DNA from: Candidatus Omnitrophota bacterium
Lineage (GTDB): Bacteria; Omnitrophota; Gorgyraeia; Zapsychrales; Fredricksoniimonadaceae
Assembly (NCBI GenBank): GCA_031386565.1
Contig: JANNCL010000267.1
Location: forward strand, 1-35,642
Length of the DNA stretch: 35,642 nt
Direction: 5' to 3'
Shown: in pieces, positions 2,954 through 35,642 of the stretch
Layout of the letters: every line of letters starts with the position of its first letter
How positions within the stretch are numbered: position 1 is the stretch's first letter
Position numbers and translations under genes: made by a program
The notes under the pieces: generated by a model
The model's database searches: none
Told to the model about the DNA's origin: nothing
Seen by the model: only the letters and a program-made list of their open reading frames with translations

Positions 2954-5900
2954 ATGCTTCGGAAGCTAGGGTGCCTCTTTTTAACTTTTTTACTATTGCC
3001 ATTTTCCCAACTACAAGCGGATCAAATAGTTCTGCCTGTCCCCGGAACCATGGTACGGCTAAGCCCTGCCTATGAGCCTCCGTTATTAAAAGGTATTAAG
3101 GTCCATCCTGAGAATCCGTTTCGTTTCGAATTCGTTTTGGATCGTGGCGATCAAAAATCTACCGTAGGGGCGGATCGTGATCCGCCCTTTTTAAAAGAAG
3201 AATCCAAAAAATTGATCAAATATTTCCTAGCCGCCTTAACCACCCCCGAAAAAGATCTCTGGGTCAACTTAAGCCCCTACGAAAAAGACCGCATCGTGCC
3301 GGAGAGTTTTGGCCAGACTGAGATGGGCCGCGACCTTTTAGCGCAAGACTATATTTTAAAGCAAATTACGGCAAGTTTGGTTTATCCTGAAGGGGATATT
3401 GGTAAAAGGTTTTGGAAAAAGGTATATGAGTCAGCCGGGAATAAAAATGTTCCTGTTAATACGTTCAATAAAGTATGGATCATGCCTGATAAGGCGGAGG
3501 TGTATGAGAATACAAAGACCGGCACGGCGTATATTGTGCGGTCCAGTCTAAAAGTATTGACTGAGCAAGACTATCTTGCCACCAACAAAAACACAACCGT
3601 AGGGGCCGATCTTGTGTCGGCCCGCCATGCCGGGCGGACACAAGGTCCGCCCCTACGAAATACCGATAATTCCAAGATCATACGTGACCTCGTCATCCCA
3701 GAATTAACCAAAGAAATAAACCAAGGCCAAAACTTCGCCCAATTACGTCAAGTTTACAACAGCCTGATACTTGCCACCTGGTACAAAAAGAAGATCAAAG
3801 ACAGCATCCTCTCACAAGTATATGCCGATAAGAACAAGATCAAAGGCACAGAATACGATCAAAGCATTATTTCCCCTCCCCTTGTGGGAGGGGCCAGGGG
3901 AGGGGTACGATCCCAAGGACAAAAAGACGAGTCCCCCCTCCCTAACCCTCCCCACGATGGGGGAGGGAAGAATGACGTCGAAGCCATCTACGCCCGCTAT
4001 TTACAAGCCTTCAAAAAAGGCGCCTACAATTATATCAAAGATACTGACTTGCCTAACGGCCGGACAGTACCTACGAAATATTTCTCCGGCGGGGCGCGAT
4101 TTGATATGGCGATGATGACGACAACGGAAGAGTTAAGTGATCTACATCTTAGCCAAGCGGTGATCGTTCAGGCAAATATGGAACAAGCCATTTTTAAGGA
4201 ACCTGATGCTGCCATGTCGCATGACGAATCAATGCATAAATTACTTCTTGAGGCTATGTTATGGTATATGAACAGAGATCCTGAGCTGTCTCAACAAATG
4301 GTGGTTGCTCATCATGAGGAAGATCTTGTAAGAAAGTTTTTTCTTGGCAGAAAGGTTTTAAATGTTGCGCCGGAAGAAATTTCTTTTTCGGATATTCTAT
4401 TGGAGCAGAATATCATGACGGATATGAGGCAAAAAGGTATCGATGCAAGGGCTCTAGCTCCCGTAAACAAGCATCCACTTTGGGAAAAAGAAAGTTTCTA
4501 TCAAGGAGTGGTGGAAGATATGCATATGATCAATGCTGACACATTTGATGATATTGTCATTGCTAGATTATTTGATCCTGATTATTGGGAAACTACTGTA
4601 GGGAAGCAATTAGGCCAGACGGTAGAACAAAGAAGGGCTCTTTATCCCAGGATCGCAAAAGAATTAAAACGGGTACTTAGAGATAAAGGCAGGCTTTTTA
4701 TGCTTTCTATGGACGGCAATCCGTATTTATTCGAAGCTTTAAGGCACGAAGGGTTTAAGGTTTTTTCTTTAAAGTTAGATAAGAACAATCAGTTATTTGG
4801 CACGCTTTTAATTAACGACAAAACCATTATAGAATACGGAAATGGTGTTGGAAGAACAGACTTCGGCAGTAATCAAGCCATGCTTTCGCTTGCGGACAGT
4901 ATGGCATGGGGGGATGCGAAGGAAGATGCGGGGGTATATTTCAGGCTTAAGGCATTTTTGGATAAGGATGATCTTAAAGATCTGCAGCAATATGATCCGC
5001 AACAGCGCGCGCAATTGATCGCGCTTTGGTTGAAGGTGCGTTGGGCGAAAGCATTTCCTACGGATCATTGGCGATTATTAGAATCCGTCAGAAGCATCAT
5101 CGTAAATTATTTGTTAAAGAATACGTTATTGACGCACAGGGAACGCAATGAGGGGGCGATAGGGGAATTCGCTAAGTTTGGGATGCCCCGCTTTCAAGCG
5201 GAGATGCTGCTGCATTGGGCAGAGGATGTATTTAATGGCAAGTCGGATGCTCGATTCACGTTCCATCAATGGGCGGTGGCGTCCCATGTAGGGGATGCGC
5301 AAAATGCCGTGGATAAATTTGGTGTCATTGTTGGGCTTAATGAAGAGCAGAAAAATGAATTGATCCAGTATCTTTTAGGACAGAGTGAAAGGCTGTACCG
5401 TGATGCCGAAGAACAACAAAAGTTCGACGCTATTTGGCTGGCAGTCAAGTACAAATGGTCCGAGGATTCTTTTAAGCGGTTCATGAATGAACATATGATG
5501 ACGCATATCGATCCCGAAGCGCGTCAGATCTTAAGGCAGGAGGCTTTGGAAGATCTCCCGATGCAGGGACGGGAGAGGTTATATACCCGTCAACAGATCG
5601 CGGACATGGCCAATGATGCGGGCGTGCTTTGGAATCGTTGGGAGTGGATTAAGGCCAGGCAGCCTGCGATCGAGCGGATGGCGGCGCCGTTTAATGGTGT
5701 TGAAGCAAGAAAACGGGCCATTATTTTTGGAAGATTGCTGGAGCTTAATCTAGCACAACAGAAAGACGTAGAGAGTTATCTTTTAGGCGCCCTCGAAAGG
5801 GTATTTGTTGACAATACAGAGCAGCAAAAATTTGATGCTGTTTGGCTGGCAGTGAAATATGGATGGACAGGAGAATCGCTGGTTCGGTTCGTTCAAAATA

Positions 5901-8900
5901 AAATAATTTTCCACATCGATCCAAAGGCTGCGGGATTCTTAAGGAGGGAAGTCCCAGATCACCTTAGGATCTTCCGTTCTGAGAAGTCTGGCGGCTTCTC
6001 TGATGGGGAGATCTTCGCTATGGCTCATGATGCCGGGTTACTTTATGAAACGCGTTGGGAGGTAAAGCATATTAATCAGGAGTCTCAACACGTGATGCAG
6101 GTCATTGAAGAGAAGCTGGCCAAATCTGTCCCGTTAACCCGCGCGCCTAAGATCGAACCGGAGGTCACACAAAGGATCCAGCAGGCCGAGCAAAAGGCCG
6201 ACCTGTTTTTCGAAGATTTGCATGCGTTAAGCACCCTGCCTCCGGCGCAGTTCGTAGAAGAGTTATTGCAGAAGATGGTTATCCAAGAGCCTAATTTTGA
6301 GCGTATCCTTTCAGGGCAGGCGGCCTTGCCGGATAATTGGCAGGACGATGTTGCTGCGTTCGCGAAACGTCTGGATCAACGCTGGCAAGCGTGGGGTGCA
6401 GATGGGATATCCATGCAGCAAAGATTTGGCTCGATCTATTCAGTGATGGCCTTGAGGATCGGAGCCGATTTATTTGCTACTTACGAGCAGGCGGTATTGA
6501 CACACGCATGGTTTTTTGCTTTTGTTTCAGCTGCTCCTCCGGAGGCTATGGTTGAAGCATTGCACATGATCACATCCTCGCATATCATCCATTTAAGGCT
6601 TCATGGGATGCATCCATATTCAGATAAGTTGTTTGAAAGGCCAGTGAGTTTAGATGTTGATACTCTTTATGGAAGAAAGGGCAGGAGTGTTGGTGTTTTA
6701 AGAAATTACTTGGAAGCATTCAAGCCCCTAAGGTCAAAGGTATTTGACCAACGTTTTGAATATGATTTTTTATGGGGTCTGGTGATGGGATCAGACCCAT
6801 CCCCACTTGATCCCAGATATGCGGAGAATCATTCTAACGATCAGGTTAATGTTCTTAAGCAGGGCAAGTCTGATGATGAATTCTTTAGGAATTCATTAAG
6901 AGAAGCTGTCGAACAGCTCGACATTGATCCGCGAGAGTTTGAATTGTTGTTATTGGAAGCGTTAGCTATTTCAGATCAAGAATGGGAAGCGATGGGCTAT
7001 GTTTCTCCTTATAAAATTAAGATGGGACATGAAATCAGTGATTTTTACATTGCTGCCGCGCAGAAAAAACATGTTCTACCCACTGGGCCTGTATCCTTAA
7101 TGAGCCCAGATCCTGGATTGCTTGAATTCAGAGGGGTCTTTTTAAAGAACTACAATAAGGTTTTCGAAGGAAGGGAAAGTTTAAGGGACTACTACATAGA
7201 ATCCTGGTCCGCGCTGTACCCCAGTCTGGCGGGAATAAAAGATCGTGCTCAGACTGCCGACGATAAGGCGGTTTCTGAGAGTTCATGGTTGGATCAGATC
7301 ATTAAGGATCCCAAGATTGACAAGATCAGTGAAGGTGTTCATGTGCGTCGGATCACTTTTTTGAATACGGCTTTGGTTATGGAAATATGGTTATCCGATA
7401 CACGGCAACATGGGATAGACGCTGTTGTTGTCAATGAAGGATTCCCATCTGCTAAAAAGAAAGAATTCAGGAATATCCCTAGACGCTTGGTTTTTGACAA
7501 TAGCGCTGGTATTGAAAAGCGAAAAAGCATGGTGTATACGCTTATGGATTTCTTAGCCGGTGAAATTCTTGTGCAGCGCATCGCGGCCAATCACAAAGCT
7601 TCCAGAGAACTAGAGATCCAGCATAAGGATGAGTATTTGGATGAGAAAGTAAGTGCGGATCTTCAAGGACTTATTGGATTTGGGAAGTTTATTAAGACGA
7701 TTGTTTATATGATTTTTGGCAAAACAGGTTTAATGTACGAGAATCTTTTAAATACAAAATCGAGGTTTTTAAAAGCGGTTTTACGCTTAAATGATACGGA
7801 TTTTTTAAAACAGAAGCCGCAGCTGGGACGAACTTATCAGGTTGTATTTCGTGAGCAGTATTATGGCAAGATATCTATTTCGATGGATGATCGAGATCAG
7901 TTTTATGTTGTTTTGATAGAACAAATGTACGGTCGACCATTATGGAGGCGTATCCCCATAGCACAATATGATCATTTATCGGATATTATAAAAGTTACCC
8001 TTGATTCTATAGAGCAAGAGATCGGGCAGACAGCGGTTCCAGGACAGGGGGTAGATCGGGCTATGGTACAAGGTCAGGGGGCCGACCGTATTAGAAGAGG
8101 ATTGTTGGTGAGTATTGCTTCATCACTATCGTTTTCTCCCCAAGCGGCTGTGATCGAATTTCCTACATATGATGAAGAAAGGGTTACGGGGCAAGTTCCC
8201 GGTTATGTACAAAGCGTGATCGGCAGATGGTTCCCCAGGTATAAAATTATCCTTACACAGGGTGGGGATCAGATTTTATGGGATGAAAGAACCAAAACGC
8301 TGCGTTTTAACAGGGAGCGTTTTGAGGGAATGAACGATGATCAGCTATTTGCGGCCTTGGCTGCAGATACGGCATATTATGGAGTGAAACTTTTTGCTAA
8401 AGATAATGACGCGCTGATGCAAATGGGTTTTATAGGTGCGGAGACGATCGCGCGGGCAAAGAAAATGCTTGTTTTTGACCATCTAGTGTCAGATGGCAAG
8501 ATACCTGTTACTTCAACAATGCAGGAGGAGCAGCTGCTTAGCAAGGCTTTTCTGGCCTTGATCGAACAGCGTCATAAGCTGGTGGATTTTGAAGGGTACA
8601 GCCTTGAAAAGGCCACGCTTGAAAAACCGCTTGTGGATAATAACGGTTTTTTGCAGCAGAGGGTTGTAAGCATTGCTCTGGAAAACTTGAATACGCGCTT
8701 AAAGAAACGCGTTTTAGCAAAGGTTGTCATGGATCTTCAGAGCGGAAAGAATAAAGTTACTTTCATGCCGATGGAAGATAGTGCTCAAATCAGTTCCATT
8801 GACTCAAAGCGCGGGGGTATTGATCTTACTAGTGACAAGATGGATTTAAAGCTTAAAAGCGATGGTGGGGCTATCCGGTTCAAGATGGATCCGGCTCAAT

Positions 8901-9019
8901 TAAAAGCGTTGCAAGAAGCTCCGGGTTTGATCCCTTCTATTGTTAACATGCGCACTTTGCCCGCAGGACAGGAAGGCATCAACATCTTAAAGTTGTTTTT
9001 AGGGGTTCAGGCTCCTTAG
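2954..9019 (+). CDS. Giant secreted modular protein, paralog 1 (2021 aa): conserved N-module + orphan ~1500-aa cargo + conserved C-terminal tail; function unknown
   Basis: Uninterrupted 6066-nt ORF with signal peptide MLRKLGCLFLTFLLLPFSQLQA. The N-module aligns with 11889-14906 (45/58 identical over KYFLAALT..YPE) and with 35400-35642 (36/39 identical over LPVPGTMV..LD+G). The tail GGIDLTSDKMDLKLK..GLIPSIV aligns with the paralog 2 tail. Confidence 0.9.
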   Translation: MLRKLGCLFLTFLLLPFSQLQADQIVLPVPGTMVRLSPAYEPPLLKGIKVHPENPFRFEFVLDRGDQKSTVGADRDPPFLKEESKKLIKYFLAALTTPEKDLWVNLSPYEKDRIVPESFGQTEMGRDLLAQDYILKQITASLVYPEGDIGKRFWKKVYESAGNKNVPVNTFNKVWIMPDKAEVYENTKTGTAYIVRSSLKVLTEQDYLATNKNTTVGADLVSARHAGRTQGPPLRNTDNSKIIRDLVIPELTKEINQGQNFAQLRQVYNSLILATWYKKKIKDSILSQVYADKNKIKGTEYDQSIISPPLVGGARGGVRSQGQKDESPLPNPPHDGGGKNDVEAIYARYLQAFKKGAYNYIKDTDLPNGRTVPTKYFSGGARFDMAMMTTTEELSDLHLSQAVIVQANMEQAIFKEPDAAMSHDESMHKLLLEAMLWYMNRDPELSQQMVVAHHEEDLVRKFFLGRKVLNVAPEEISFSDILLEQNIMTDMRQKGIDARALAPVNKHPLWEKESFYQGVVEDMHMINADTFDDIVIARLFDPDYWETTVGKQLGQTVEQRRALYPRIAKELKRVLRDKGRLFMLSMDGNPYLFEALRHEGFKVFSLKLDKNNQLFGTLLINDKTIIEYGNGVGRTDFGSNQAMLSLADSMAWGDAKEDAGVYFRLKAFLDKDDLKDLQQYDPQQRAQLIALWLKVRWAKAFPTDHWRLLESVRSIIVNYLLKNTLLTHRERNEGAIGEFAKFGMPRFQAEMLLHWAEDVFNGKSDARFTFHQWAVASHVGDAQNAVDKFGVIVGLNEEQKNELIQYLLGQSERLYRDAEEQQKFDAIWLAVKYKWSEDSFKRFMNEHMMTHIDPEARQILRQEALEDLPMQGRERLYTRQQIADMANDAGVLWNRWEWIKARQPAIERMAAPFNGVEARKRAIIFGRLLELNLAQQKDVESYLLGALERVFVDNTEQQKFDAVWLAVKYGWTGESLVRFVQNKIIFHIDPKAAGFLRREVPDHLRIFRSEKSGGFSDGEIFAMAHDAGLLYETRWEVKHINQESQHVMQVIEEKLAKSVPLTRAPKIEPEVTQRIQQAEQKADLFFEDLHALSTLPPAQFVEELLQKMVIQEPNFERILSGQAALPDNWQDDVAAFAKRLDQRWQAWGADGISMQQRFGSIYSVMALRIGADLFATYEQAVLTHAWFFAFVSAAPPEAMVEALHMITSSHIIHLRLHGMHPYSDKLFERPVSLDVDTLYGRKGRSVGVLRNYLEAFKPLRSKVFDQRFEYDFLWGLVMGSDPSPLDPRYAENHSNDQVNVLKQGKSDDEFFRNSLREAVEQLDIDPREFELLLLEALAISDQEWEAMGYVSPYKIKMGHEISDFYIAAAQKKHVLPTGPVSLMSPDPGLLEFRGVFLKNYNKVFEGRESLRDYYIESWSALYPSLAGIKDRAQTADDKAVSESSWLDQIIKDPKIDKISEGVHVRRITFLNTALVMEIWLSDTRQHGIDAVVVNEGFPSAKKKEFRNIPRRLVFDNSAGIEKRKSMVYTLMDFLAGEILVQRIAANHKASRELEIQHKDEYLDEKVSADLQGLIGFGKFIKTIVYMIFGKTGLMYENLLNTKSRFLKAVLRLNDTDFLKQKPQLGRTYQVVFREQYYGKISISMDDRDQFYVVLIEQMYGRPLWRRIPIAQYDHLSDIIKVTLDSIEQEIGQTAVPGQGVDRAMVQGQGADRIRRGLLVSIASSLSFSPQAAVIEFPTYDEERVTGQVPGYVQSVIGRWFPRYKIILTQGGDQILWDERTKTLRFNRERFEGMNDDQLFAALAADTAYYGVKLFAKDNDALMQMGFIGAETIARAKKMLVFDHLVSDGKIPVTSTMQEEQLLSKAFLALIEQRHKLVDFEGYSLEKATLEKPLVDNNGFLQQRVVSIALENLNTRLKKRVLAKVVMDLQSGKNKVTFMPMEDSAQISSIDSKRGGIDLTSDKMDLKLKSDGGAIRFKMDPAQLKALQEAPGLIPSIVNMRTLPAGQEGINILKLFLGVQAP
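3164..3187 (+). repeat. Single REP-like unit (GTAG + 8-bp hairpin) inside the paralog 1 CDS
   Basis: GTAG GGGCGGAT CGTG ATCCGCCC: perfect 8-bp stem with a 4-nt loop. It is translated as TVGADRDPP. Confidence 0.7.
3599..3656 (+). repeat. 58-nt REPIN-like inverted doublet (two hairpins) read in frame inside the paralog 1 N-module
   Basis: GTAG GGGCCGAT CTTGT GTCGGCCC GCCATGCC GGGCGGAC ACAAG GTCCGCCC CTAC. The outer ends are GTAG/CTAC and the two loops are complementary. It encodes VGADLVSARHAGRTQGPPL. Confidence 0.85.
3873..3967 (+). repeat. C-tract/G-tract triple-hairpin cluster inserted in frame in paralog 1 only
   Basis: Three arm pairs: CCCCTCCC (3873-3880) / GGGAGGGG (3886-3893) with loop CTTGT; GGGAGGGG (3898-3905) / CCCCTCCC (3935-3942); CCCTCCCC (3946-3953) / GGGGAGGG (3960-3967). 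It encodes SPPLVGGARGGVRSQGQKDESPLPNPPHDGGG. Paralog 2 is 24 codons shorter here. Confidence 0.8.
5336..6070 (+). repeat. Internal tandem duplication (~136-aa unit, 2 copies) within the paralog 1 cargo
   Basis: Unit 1 starts at LNEEQKNELIQYLLG (5336) and unit 2 at LNLAQQKDVESYLLG (5744). 22/37 residues are identical over EQQKFDA[IV]WLAVKY..HIDP.A, and both units end with DAG[VL]L...RWE[WV]K. Confidence 0.8.
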
Positions 9020-11888: not shown

Positions 11889-14800
11889 ATGCGGAAAACG
11901 ATATTTAGCCTAGTTTTGGTCAGCTTCTTGATCAGTAACATCAATATTCCTTTGCTTAGGGCAGGGGAAGTTGTTGTGCCCATCATGCCCAAGCCGGGCA
12001 CCATGGTTTCTTTAAGTCCTATCTTTACCCCGGCTTATCTTAAAGGGATTGTTATTCATCCCGACAATGCCCTGCAATTCGACTTTTTGATCAACAAAGG
12101 CGATGGAAATTTAAACACTCAAGAAAAGAATCAGGAATATACTAAACTAGTCAAATACTTCCTGGCGGCACTCACCGTCCCGGATCAAGACCAATGGGTG
12201 AACTTAAGCCCGTATGAAAAAGACCGCATTATTAAAGATGACTTCGGCAAGACCGAAATGGGCCGCGACCTTTTGGGTCAAGATTATTTGTTAAAGCAGA
12301 TCACCTCATCTTTAATGTATCCCGAATCTGGTTTAGGCAAAAATTTCTGGGATAAAGTCTATGCCAAAGCCCAAGAAGAATTTGGCAACACCAATATCCC
12401 CGTCAACACATTCAACAAAGTCTGGATCGTGCCAGATCAAGCCATTGTTTATGAAAGCGGCAATATTGCGTATGTAGGGCGCAGTCATTTGAAAGTGATG
12501 TTGGAAGAAGATTATCTTGCCATCAACAAAAATAAATCCGTAGGGGAGGACCTTGTGTCCTCCCGCCATGCCGGGCCGATACAAGATCGGCCCCTACAAA
12601 ATACCGATCAAGCACAAATAATCCGTGAACTCATCCTCCCCGAATTAGAAAAAGAAGTCAACCAAGGCAAAAATTTCGCCCAATTACGCCAAGTTTTTAG
12701 CGGCATGATCCTAGCCACTTGGTATAAAAAAGCATTGAAAGAATCTTTGTTAGCCAAAATTTACGCAGATAAAAATAAAACTAAAGGAACGGGATATACA
12801 AAAAGCATTCTCAACCGAAGCCAACCTGGGAAACAACCAAACGACATCGAGCTTGTGTACCAGCAATACCTCCAAGCCTTTAAGAAAGGCGTATACAACT
12901 ATATTAAAGAGGACACAGACAAATACACACATCAACCCATTCCCAGAAAATATTTTGCGGGTGGGGTGAATGGCATTCCAAAAAATGTTCTAGAAGTACG
13001 CCAAGGCACAAGCCCGGCAATGACGGCGGAAGTAAACACCCTTGATGCCGCGCAAGTTAGTTTAGATAGTAAAAAAGCAGATGCGGCGATGAATATTCAA
13101 GAAATACAATCTTACAGCCAATGGGTAGTTCGGATATTGACGACCGGTGTACCGTTGACATTTACAACTGTTTCAGCTCAGGCAGCACAATTTCAAGAAT
13201 TTGTATCAACATATCCTTGGTTAGCAACGGGTTCTGCAATAGGGCTGACGGCTGCAACATGGTTTGGGTATTATTTGTGGAGTATGTTTCATACGTTAAA
13301 GGGAATGGGGCGTGCTTATGACCAGAAAATAGTGAGCAAGGAACAATTTCGTGCGTGGCTAGATGAATATCTTCCCACACAAAGCGACGCAATATTGATT
13401 GGCTTATTGAACCACCGACAGATGGCAGTTCGGGAAAAATCTGCGGAAATATTAGTGCGTTTGAAAACTAGAAGGGCTTCTCAAGAAGAGGTGATCCAAG
13501 CATTGTTGGGAAGACTTGGCGATTATGATCCTGTTCATCAGAGGGCATTATTAGGATTGAAGGAATTAGGAGTAAGCCAAGAACTCCTATTGAGCGAATA
13601 TCATGTCATTGTCTGGAATGCAGATAACTCAACATTTATGCGCTTGGGAGGAGACTCCGAACGCTCCTCTTTTGAGTCTGTTAACAAAGCCATCAAATTT
13701 TTTAGTGAAATAGGTGAACAAGGCAGGGATGAATTAGTTGCTATAGGTAAAAATCATCCAAGTGAAGGTGTTCGAAAGCGAGCGGGAGAAATTGTATCCA
13801 GGATAGTATGGGATTATGGGACATGGGGTTCAACTTATACTTTGGATGATGTCGAAATGGCAATAAAAATGTTAGGAAGAATGGGGTCGGTAGGGTTGTA
13901 TGAATTATCCAGAATAAAAGGGGAAGATCTTGACCGCAGGGTTATTGAAATGGCGAAAAATCAAATAGACGCGGCGATGGGGGAGAATTTGAGTTATAAG
14001 GGCAAGGACTTTGAAATCAGCTCGCAAGGACTATTGATTGGCACAATATATTCAATTTATTTTCTTTTACGTGAAAGGGCTATTGCTTCGAAGCATCCAA
14101 CGATTGCATTTGACCTAGATGGAACGATTGCTTTTTGGAACGGGAGTGAATATCTGATAAGACCCGGAATCGAAGAACAAATCCGTAAGCTTAAACAAAG
14201 GGGTTTTCGTATAGTTTTATGGACGTCAGCACCAAGAGAGCATGTTCGTGTTAACTTTATTGAAAAGAATTCTGCAATTGCTAATTTTTTTGATTTAGTT
14301 ATTTCCAGAGAAAGTTTCAGCCCTTTAATAGAAAATGAGCAAGCAATGAAAGGCGTTTATGCAAGATTTATGAAGATTCCAGTAAGTGATTTTATGGAAA
14401 GAATTCATAGAACATATTTTGCGACTAACAATGATTGGGGATTTAAGGATTTTTTGTTGCTGGGATACAAGTTCTTAGTTGATGATACACCGCTCAAGAT
14501 TTTAAAAGGTCAGCCTTATCCTCTAATCCAAGAGTACAAGATGAGGTACATGCAGGCGGGATTTTTCTACACTAATTCTCAAGGAGTGAGTCTGGGTGAC
14601 GATTATCCGATAGGAAATCTAGCTGATACGATTCAAGAAAAAATTGAGCAAGCTGACAAATCATTTGGTGGTGGTACTGATGTTGATGTGGCTGGAAATG
14701 TATTAGATGCGGCGATGAAAGATCCCGGCGGTATTGACATGAACTCCGCTAATTTGGATTTGCAGATTAAGCGTGATGGTAAAGGGGTGCCTTTGCCGCT

Positions 14801-14906
14801 TTCTCAGCAAGATATGGCGCTGTTGTCTCGTATTGAAGGATTTGTTCCGCGTATCATTGCAATCAAACCTGCCTCTTCATTGCCGATCTTTAGTAAAATA
14901 CAGTAA
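11889..14906 (+). CDS. Secreted modular protein, paralog 2 (1005 aa): conserved N-module + TM segment + HEAT-like repeats + HAD-superfamily phosphatase domain + conserved tail
   Basis: Signal peptide, then an N-module homologous to paralog 1. Hydrophobic helix WLATGSAIGLTAATWFGYYLW. HEAT-like units (HRQMAVREKSAEILVRL, HPSEGVRKRAGEIVSRI). HAD motifs: FDLDGT (14109-14126), LWTSA, VDDTP (~14478-14492). Tail: GGIDMNSANLDLQIK..GFVPRII. Confidence 0.9.
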   Translation: MRKTIFSLVLVSFLISNINIPLLRAGEVVVPIMPKPGTMVSLSPIFTPAYLKGIVIHPDNALQFDFLINKGDGNLNTQEKNQEYTKLVKYFLAALTVPDQDQWVNLSPYEKDRIIKDDFGKTEMGRDLLGQDYLLKQITSSLMYPESGLGKNFWDKVYAKAQEEFGNTNIPVNTFNKVWIVPDQAIVYESGNIAYVGRSHLKVMLEEDYLAINKNKSVGEDLVSSRHAGPIQDRPLQNTDQAQIIRELILPELEKEVNQGKNFAQLRQVFSGMILATWYKKALKESLLAKIYADKNKTKGTGYTKSILNRSQPGKQPNDIELVYQQYLQAFKKGVYNYIKEDTDKYTHQPIPRKYFAGGVNGIPKNVLEVRQGTSPAMTAEVNTLDAAQVSLDSKKADAAMNIQEIQSYSQWVVRILTTGVPLTFTTVSAQAAQFQEFVSTYPWLATGSAIGLTAATWFGYYLWSMFHTLKGMGRAYDQKIVSKEQFRAWLDEYLPTQSDAILIGLLNHRQMAVREKSAEILVRLKTRRASQEEVIQALLGRLGDYDPVHQRALLGLKELGVSQELLLSEYHVIVWNADNSTFMRLGGDSERSSFESVNKAIKFFSEIGEQGRDELVAIGKNHPSEGVRKRAGEIVSRIVWDYGTWGSTYTLDDVEMAIKMLGRMGSVGLYELSRIKGEDLDRRVIEMAKNQIDAAMGENLSYKGKDFEISSQGLLIGTIYSIYFLLRERAIASKHPTIAFDLDGTIAFWNGSEYLIRPGIEEQIRKLKQRGFRIVLWTSAPREHVRVNFIEKNSAIANFFDLVISRESFSPLIENEQAMKGVYARFMKIPVSDFMERIHRTYFATNNDWGFKDFLLLGYKFLVDDTPLKILKGQPYPLIQEYKMRYMQAGFFYTNSQGVSLGDDYPIGNLADTIQEKIEQADKSFGGGTDVDVAGNVLDAAMKDPGGIDMNSANLDLQIKRDGKGVPLPLSQQDMALLSRIEGFVPRIIAIKPASSLPIFSKIQ
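12540..12597 (+). repeat. 58-nt REPIN-like inverted doublet read in frame inside the paralog 2 N-module (same site as 3599-3656)
   Basis: GTAG GGGAGGAC CTTGT GTCCTCCC GCCATGCC GGGCCGAT ACAAG ATCGGCCC CTAC. Both stems are perfect. It encodes VGEDLVSSRHAGPIQDRPL. Confidence 0.85.
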
Positions 14907-35362: not shown

Positions 35363-35399
35363 AGTGGCACATATATAAATAATATGCTAAACTTTGGGC

Positions 35400-35642
35400 A
35401 TGCCTCGAAGATTTTTAAGTTTAATCCTATCTATATGTTTATTGCCTTTGCCGCAAGTCTATGCAGCAGAAGGACTTTTAAGCTTGCCTGTGCCTGGGAC
35501 TATGGTACGGCTAAGCCCTGCTTATGAACCGCCACTATTAAAAGGCATTAAAGTTCATCCTGATAATCCGTTTCGTTTCGAGTTCATTTTAGATAAAGGA
35601 AACGAAACGCCCGCCGTAGCCAAAGGCGAAAGCACTTTGGCG
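35400..35642 (+). CDS. Secreted modular protein, paralog 3 (first 81 codons only; runs off the window; absent from the ORF track)
   Basis: My translation from ATG 35400 is MPRRFLSLILSICLLPLPQVYAAEGLLSLPVPGTMVRLSPAYEPPLLKGIKVHPDNPFRFEFILDKGNETPAVAKGESTLA. 36/39 residues are identical to paralog 1 after the signal peptide. The nucleotide differences I checked are mostly synonymous. Confidence 0.85.
   Translation, partial: MPRRFLSLILSICLLPLPQVYAAEGLLSLPVPGTMVRLSPAYEPPLLKGIKVHPDNPFRFEFILDKGNETPAVAKGESTLA

Follow-up and report, generated by a model that had tools for sequence, protein, structure and literature searches.

A dispersed palindromic repeat, probably of BoxC/PIT/TM type, lodged in frame in a secreted modular protein of Candidatus Omnitrophota, and a nuclease cassette with similar ends

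The stretch of DNA described here, referred to below as the window, comprises the 35,642 nucleotides of contig JANNCL010000267.1 (our C209) of a Candidatus Omnitrophota metagenome-assembled genome (MAG; GCA_031386565.1, our G000) of 2.40 Mb, 344 contigs and 44.8% G+C. The window contains an open reading frame (ORF) for a 2021-aa protein, P0001, within which lies a C-tract/G-tract segment of 99 nt at positions 3871-3969. We consider, with a probability of about 80%, that this segment is one copy of a palindromic repeat, dispersed and non-coding, in which two BoxC/PIT/TM-type units stand inverted to each other, and that it settled in a disordered surface loop at which a secreted modular protein tolerates insertions. 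It would have come to this loop either because the element moved or because ectopic recombination brought it from another paralog's copy, and was presumably kept because it is 99 nt long, is free of stop codons in the frame used and adds only a flexible Pro/Gly-rich peptide of 33 residues. For the protein, the insert is probably near-neutral; as DNA, it may promote recombination between members of the paralog family. Since its ends resemble those of a nuclease cassette elsewhere in the genome, it is most likely related to that cassette as a miniature form, and the short elements would be internal-deletion derivatives of it.

Direct reading of the segment recovered the six arms and three pairings listed in a preliminary description of this DNA: CCCCTCCC (3873-3880) pairs with GGGAGGGG (3886-3893), leaving CTTGT as the loop, GGGAGGGG (3898-3905) with CCCCTCCC (3935-3942), and CCCTCCCC (3946-3953) with GGGGAGGG (3960-3967). 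These three hairpins also form the minimum-energy fold of the segment as single-stranded DNA (-28.5 kcal/mol, z -2.9), so that the six-arm, three-hairpin structure is confirmed. As RNA, the segment closes over its whole length to a single long hairpin (-58.5 kcal/mol, z -3.4); what constitutes the unit is therefore an imperfect palindrome of 99 nt that starts with TT and ends with AA. Its left half reads CCCCTCCCC-TTGT-GGGAGGGG-CCA-GGGGAGGGG (3873-3905), the two G-blocks forming a mirror repeat, and the inverse of this unit stands at 3933-3967 (Table 1). The middle hairpin of the preliminary description is thus more aptly read as a pairing between the inner arms of two three-block units, which are inverted relative to each other and have their third arms pointing inward. 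The pattern CCCCTCCC-N3-8-GGGAGGGG occurs once in the window (0.00 expected). The element is translated in frame within ORF 2954-9019 as ISPPLVGGARGGVRSQGQKDESPLPNPPHDGGGK (aa 306-339). Comparison with Rfam gave matches to generic hairpin (miRNA) models only; these scored far below the gathering thresholds and are meaningless.

The segment belongs to a repeat family that is dispersed over the genome. A genome-wide search for the C-tract/G-tract hairpin, which the preliminary description had proposed, returned 25 sites, as against none for the reversed control. Using nhmmer with a profile made from full copies, 44 loci were found in G000, of which 23 are full length (79-108 nt) and 21 partial. 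Sixteen of the 23 full copies are intergenic, and several adjoin start codons. All 47 tabulated unit ends have TT just before them (AA on the other side), within A/T-rich flanks in which no conserved word was found. These counts, together with the roughly 50 paralogs of the host gene that are empty at the corresponding loop, bear out the earlier proposal that a second palindromic repeat family has landed in frame in a conserved module. As a separate observation, many intergenic copies stop a few bases upstream of a start codon, with a terminal GGAGG at Shine-Dalgarno distance (examples in Table 1); at such places the repeats may supply or mask ribosome-binding sites.

The conserved N-terminal module (N-module) of P0001 recurs in 57 paralogs in G000 (at least 200 matched residues), whose ORFs measure 222 to 4252 aa, none of them with an internal stop. 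This family takes up roughly 8% of the coding capacity of G000 and is similarly expanded in relatives across the taxonomic family. Three ORFs of the window encode the module (2954-9019, 11889-14906 and 35394-35642), and the named homologues of P0001 in the protein search belong to Candidatus Omnitrophota. Pfam yielded no match for P0001, and for P0002 only HAD and HEAT, both below the cut-off; no record elsewhere was found for the protein of the upstream neighbor. The N-module of paralog 2 (11889-14906; about 385 aa) is 53% identical to that of P0001 (paralog 1), and BLASTP places 24 gap positions at the element, in agreement with the earlier statement that paralog 2 is 24 codons shorter there.

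Alignment of the paralogs revealed three hypervariable insertion sites, A, B and C. Site B, the loop that holds the element in P0001, is empty in about 50 of the 53 aligned paralogs, and P0001 alone has the C/G-tract element there. At site A, which follows EEDYLAxxKN, the same element is found in six other paralogs and one more has a collapsed single hairpin, while others carry there a doublet of repetitive extragenic palindromic (REP) hairpins of the GTAG type or one of two further cassettes. The insertion had been described as unique to paralog 1; this holds for site B among the 57 paralogs in G000 but not for the family as a whole, given the six site-A copies, nor beyond G000, the element occupying the same loop in two other Omnitrophota assemblies. 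In P0004 (NCBI GCA_037142055.1) site B holds a full pair of 84 nt, in P0011 (JGI 3300014839, ENA ERZ27248448) a single unit, both in the same frame and with junctions displaced by 1-3 codons. Among the homologues from the protein search, four further proteins have the element at site A. The nearest paralog of P0001 (contig C12, 68% identical) carries a GTAG-type REP doublet at site B instead, and two unrelated repeat families therefore occupy one loop in sister genes. This REP doublet is in frame (approximately C12:5812-5889) and has a spacer of 26 nt.

An AlphaFold2 model of residues 1-400 of P0001, built from an alignment of 27 sequences, reached a predicted template-modeling score (pTM) of 0.59, i.e. 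moderate confidence. In this model residues 298-339 (site B) form a coil between the helices 259-297 and 340-354, with a predicted local distance difference test score (pLDDT) below 50, and the other insertion sites (residues 68-74 and 213-235) are the remaining low-confidence coils; the low-confidence coil assigned to site B spans residues 300-336. All three insertion sites being coils of this kind, the inserts are predicted to sit where the fold would tolerate them. That a repeat-induced chimeric join during assembly put the element into the gene is hardly credible: G000 is indeed a MAG in 344 pieces, with many copies located at the ends of contigs, but the N-module continues in frame on both sides of the element, the insert measures exactly 99 nt between helices that are adjacent in all paralogs, and independent Omnitrophota assemblies show the same kind of insert at site B.

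All seven full genic copies lie within the 57-paralog family and share one orientation and one frame, although four of the six frames are open. Their lengths are 87, 96 or 99 nt, all divisible by three. They are 91.5% identical to each other (95% in the arms, third codon positions included), as compared with 67% for 150 nt of host sequence flanking the six copies at site A. The copy in the window is 80-89% identical to the other genic copies and 54-77% to the intergenic ones, and shares with other genic copies the start of the spacer, TACGATCC; judged from these identities, it belongs to a genic sub-lineage. On a tree of the N-module that was built without the insert columns, the carriers at site A are scattered, requiring six changes for six rows, of which at least four are forced by well-supported branches. 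The copies, being more alike than their hosts and scattered on the tree, therefore arrived or were homogenized after the paralogs had diverged and form a separate lineage. Inheritance of the site-A copies from a single insertion was considered and is ruled out by the scatter on the tree and by the copies being much younger than their hosts. Two collapsed in-frame forms were also observed, namely a single hairpin of 24 nt, TTCCCCTCCCCTTGTGGGAGGGAA, read SPPLVGGN, at site A on contig C46 (approximately 1862-1884), and a single three-block unit at locus L139 (P0011, site B); they suggest in-frame internal deletions between repeated arms.

The same data bear on the view that the segment is an ordinary Pro/Gly-rich linker which evolved in place under protein-level selection, its palindrome being incidental. 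The loop is predicted to be disordered and a similar peptide is present in all genic copies, as a linker would require; however, the same DNA with the same ends stands at the 16 intergenic full-length loci and around the nuclease gene described below, the flanks of the intergenic copies show that these are not pseudogene fragments of the host family, the arms are conserved at third codon positions far beyond the host flanks, and about 50 paralogs are without any counterpart. We regard this explanation as highly improbable.

The only canonical G-quadruplex (G4) motifs of the window are located at 3886-3905 (+ strand, G4Hunter 2.16) and 3933-3953 (- strand, G4Hunter -2.32), i.e. in the inner arms of the element, so that a structural potential is real at the level of the sequence, and to that extent the G4 prediction upholds the earlier suggestion of G-quadruplex or i-motif formation. 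The further suggestion of phase variation, in which G4, i-motif or triplex structures together with slippage would make the giant gene a contingency locus with a switching frame, found no support and is very unlikely. Repeats of the BoxC/PIT/TM class have been tied in print to local genomic instability (PMC4666352), but the homopolymers of the element reach no further than C6 and G5, which falls short of typical slippage tracts. Where copies differ in length, they do so in the spacer and in steps of three, and neither the seven genic copies nor the 57 paralog ORFs include any that is out of frame.

Among known repeats, the element is a variant of the BoxC/PIT/TM class. Both halves show three consecutive blocks (pyrimidine, purine, purine) separated by loops of N3-6 and N3, and the purine blocks form a mirror repeat in both systems. 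Further common features are a G/C-rich sequence interrupted by one T or A, copy numbers in the tens for each genome (here 47 unit ends and 25 outer hairpins, nearly identical), 'palindromic' paired forms, and sites that vary between related genomes. The E. coli consensus, TMECO, is CCCTCNCCC-N3-6-GGGNGAGGG-N3-GGGNGAGGG (Holder et al. 2015, PMC4666352), whereas the blocks found here are CCCCTCCC(C) and GGGAGGGG; the strict 9-nt consensus is missed by one position, the ninth base being T. Because the interrupting T merely sits elsewhere, the element is placed in the class as a variant. In E. coli, TM motifs are reported to be always intergenic, to form an intrastrand triplex in vitro that was not detected in vivo, and to lie at loci that are unusually variable among strains, and they were not found to be linked to mobile elements (PMC4666352). 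The family described here differs in having seven in-frame, translated copies and in the bracketing of a nuclease gene by its ends. Triplex-type repeats can thus reside in frame inside genes, a situation known for the Rickettsia palindromic elements (RPEs) and not in print for the BoxC/PIT/TM class.

RPEs (Ogata et al. 2000, reviewed in PMC10969869) are likewise short palindromes that occur within genes in frame, add a fold-compatible peptide and belong to families that are both genic and intergenic. Corresponding features here are the 99-nt insert without a stop, the intact ORF, the divisibility of all seven genic copies by three and, by moderate-confidence structure prediction only, the insertion into a disordered segment. 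The two are not related in sequence, RPEs measure about 150 nt as compared with about 80-100 nt here, and in the present case there are genic inserts only in the disordered loops of a single expanded gene family, as well as a candidate for a partner gene. MITEs (miniature transposable elements with inverted repeats) and their autonomous insertion sequences resemble the family in having terminal inverted repeats (about 35 nt here), a non-coding body (less than 110 nt here) without a transposase, many copies, and a longer one-ORF element with the same ends together with an apparent deletion intermediate; the differences are that no target-site duplication was found here and that the longer element's ORF does not encode a recognized transposase.

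A likeness that is one of architecture only exists to the REPIN-RAYT system (Nunvar 2010; Bertels & Rainey 2011, PMC3116915; survey PMC3733652), in which REP doublets forming hairpins (REPINs) are paired with a REP-associated tyrosine transposase (RAYT). Shared are the dispersed inverted hairpin-repeat doublets with a short spacer, a single-copy gene between two inverted units, and the patchy occurrence of gene and repeats among close relatives. The units here are, however, three-block structures rather than simple hairpins and end in TT-CCCC without the GTAG/CGTC tag, and the flanked gene encodes a DUF559 PD-(D/E)XK nuclease instead of a Y1 (HUH) transposase, its only matches being PF04480 (DUF559) and MTES_1575.

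This gene (C320:11197-11565), a Vsr-like PD-(D/E)XK nuclease gene with a PF04480 score of 126 bits, is the only DUF559 gene of the genome and lies within a cassette (C320:11157-11561) with the topology of the element: left end, DUF559 ORF, right end. TTCCCCTCCCCTTGTGGGAGGGGCTAGGGGAGGGGG stands directly upstream of the gene and CCCCCCTCCCTTACCCTCCCCACTGGGGGGAGGGAA downstream, the gene partly reading into the latter; its TTG start lies a few nucleotides past the inner G-block. By BLAST, the left and right arms of the window copy are 96% and 88% identical to the respective cassette ends. In a congener (G004) the two genes that flank the cassette are contiguous, so the cassette site is empty there. 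Together with the intergenic copies, this shows that the family reaches new, unrelated places. A filled/empty site comparison, at 70% identity, gave no fixed junction position. One copy (C220:20645-20752) has between both ends an ATG followed by about 15 codons (…ILYKAKKLRSN) resembling the N-terminus of DUF559 and, by this sequence likeness, looks like a deletion intermediate.

The association extends beyond this genome. In the 61 genomes of the taxonomic family, 11 of 14 DUF559 genes of full length show this bracketing, and in two of these 11 the arms differ in sequence from the others yet match each other. Among 80 loci sampled from many phyla, 79 were testable, and 57 of them have flanking inverted repeats of this architecture, well above shuffled controls. 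Within the genus, DUF559-bearing genomes contain 25 and 6 hairpins, as against 0, 0, 0 and 1 in those without a full copy. In the PDB, the DUF559 profile matches 3hrl (E 7e-32) and 3r3p (E 7e-4), the latter annotated as 'Mobile intron protein', which indicates that the fold can serve a mobile element. 3r3p is I-Bth0305I, one of the Vsr-like (EDxHD) homing endonucleases; genes of such endonucleases differ in sitting in introns or inteins, without terminal inverted repeats or miniature derivatives. The literature search found no DUF559 paper describing flanking repeats, and none combining a triplex or BoxC term with DUF559 or ycjD.

Two further observations concern DUF559 loci. The nine to ten bases to the left of the element (AAAGCATTAT) are identical in the window (3861-3872) and at the cassette (C320:11147-11158), and the element-free paralog 2 and C12 have similar words (AAAGCATT, AAATGCTT) where AAAGCATTAT stands; the shared word could be due to chance, target preference or shared history. 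At locus L040 (G056:C41:1737-2057) a DUF559 frame lies inside an open frame of 700 aa and is flanked by three-block units whose topology is reversed, the third arms pointing outward, which may represent an in-frame nuclease cassette within a larger gene.

By analogy with RAYT and REPINs, the DUF559 nuclease might recognize the units and drive their spread or maintenance, a proposal that we put forward as tentative and rather unlikely to hold. Doubtful to a greater degree is the wider idea that DUF559 nucleases are the missing partners of BoxC/PIT/TM repeats, i.e. a second system of the RAYT/REPIN kind with an unrelated nuclease at its base, whose miniatures would, in Omnitrophota, repeatedly enter the three disordered loops and diversify an exported protein family by furnishing it with fresh loop sequence and points for recombination.

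Several results weigh against the preferred reading of the segment as a copy of a dispersed repeat, or against its link to the nuclease. No target-site duplication or defined cut site was found in the 47 tabulated ends and one filled/empty pair. The use of one frame and the shared spacer motif fit spread by recombination at least as well as repeated transposition, and the right flank NHEM[AT]SQI, common to five site-A copies, likewise favors recombination; from this common flank it is evident that some at least of the site-A copies move through recombination between paralogs. Neither the 30 relatives nor a search of 5.8 billion proteins yielded an orthologue of the unique middle part of P0001, the matches being to the N-module only (best identity 37%), and an exact 21-mer of the left flank, used as a probe for strain variants, had no match in metagenome contigs. 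With regard to the nuclease, several genomes have the repeat although no DUF559 gene could be detected in them, among them G062 (25 hairpins, 78% complete), G054, G068 and G070, several being incomplete, so that the nuclease could be a passenger that tends to sit between repeats; conversely, G007 has the cassette and no dispersed copies. We know of no nuclease activity of the DUF559 protein on C320. The only DUF559 protein that has been studied was proposed to be a mismatch-repair nickase (PMC12907096).

A rival account of how the copy arrived is ectopic recombination or gene conversion from a site-A paralog, with the element as a passive, shuffled cassette instead of a moving one; we consider it possible, if on balance unlikely. 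Besides the NHEM[AT]SQI flank, it would explain why the window copy is nearest to the six other genic copies and stands in the same frame and orientation, why the cassettes PGDMMLTPQGEASCPQAGCQ and SQTILPSHHQSPRGVA are found only within the family, one of them at two different loops, and why the neighboring paralogs 1 and 2 share loop sequences despite distant positions on the tree. On the other hand, sites A and B have no common flanking homology that could guide recombination, the exact TT...AA ends are kept at both, the intergenic copies and the empty cassette site in the congener show the repeat family arriving at unrelated new positions, and site B is occupied in other Omnitrophota too, with shifted junctions.

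The reading of 3871-3969 as a dispersed repeat bears on a class of G/C repeats of triplex type that has been known since the 1990s and has no known origin, partner or function. In one phylum, such repeats are concentrated in flexible loops of an exported protein family that has expanded massively, and their ends are common to a small nuclease cassette which is present or absent among close relatives. If the link to the nuclease is true, a very large domain-of-unknown-function family gains a role and an orphan repeat class gains a mechanism. For annotation, Pro/Gly-rich peptides of the type 'SPPLVGGARGG...PLPNPPHKGGG' in predicted proteins are to be read as translated repeat DNA and not as a protein motif.

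Table 1. Features of the element, its host gene and related loci (unprefixed positions refer to the window; C numbers are contigs of G000)
Feature	Position	Strand	Remarks
Whole element, inverted pair of three-block C/G-tract units, 99 nt, TT...AA ends	3871..3969	+	nhmmer 71.3 bits, model positions 1-87
Left unit, pyrimidine-purine-purine	3873..3905	+	C-block 3873-3881, loop TTGT, G-block 3886-3893, loop CCA, G-block 3897-3905
Variable spacer between units, TACGATCCCAAGGACAAAAAGACGAGT	3906..3932	+	
Right unit (inverted left unit), pyrimidine-pyrimidine-purine	3933..3967	+	C-block 3933-3942, TAA, C-block 3946-3953, ACGAT, G-block 3959-3967
Host gene P0001, 2021-aa ORF	2954..9019	+	signal-peptide-like start, conserved N-module (~385 aa), unique middle, conserved C-terminal tail
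GTAG-type REP hairpin doublet, in frame at site A of P0001, TVGADLVSARHAGRTQGPPL	3598..3657	+	
Single REP-like hairpin, in frame at site C of P0001	3163..3179	+	TVGADRDPP
Site B of paralog 2, element-free, KSILNRSQPGKQPN	12801..12842	+	flanking words AAAGCATT and AACGAC.TCGA common to paralog 1
PGDMMLTPQGEASCPQAGCQ cassette, site A	C115, C34, C221, C196, C312, C5, C340, C279, C217		
SQTILPSHHQSPRGVA cassette, two different loops	site A: C336, C249, C9; site C: C221, C312, C265, C94		
Start-codon-proximal copies of the repeat	C125:2196-2290, C152:20919-21002, C279:9843-9927, C178:3236-3278, C314:704-782, C320:11157-11200		

The remaining observations concern the loops of the paralog family. The two cassettes PGDMMLTPQGEASCPQAGCQ and SQTILPSHHQSPRGVA have no intergenic copies and look like family-internal mobile or recombined segments (Table 1). 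Paralogs 1 and 2, separated by 3 kb, both carry the REP doublet at site A (3596-3657 and 12539-12597) and have the words flanking site B in common (3861-3980 and 12801-12860), yet they fall into separate well-supported groups on the N-module tree, which suggests local gene conversion between these neighbors.

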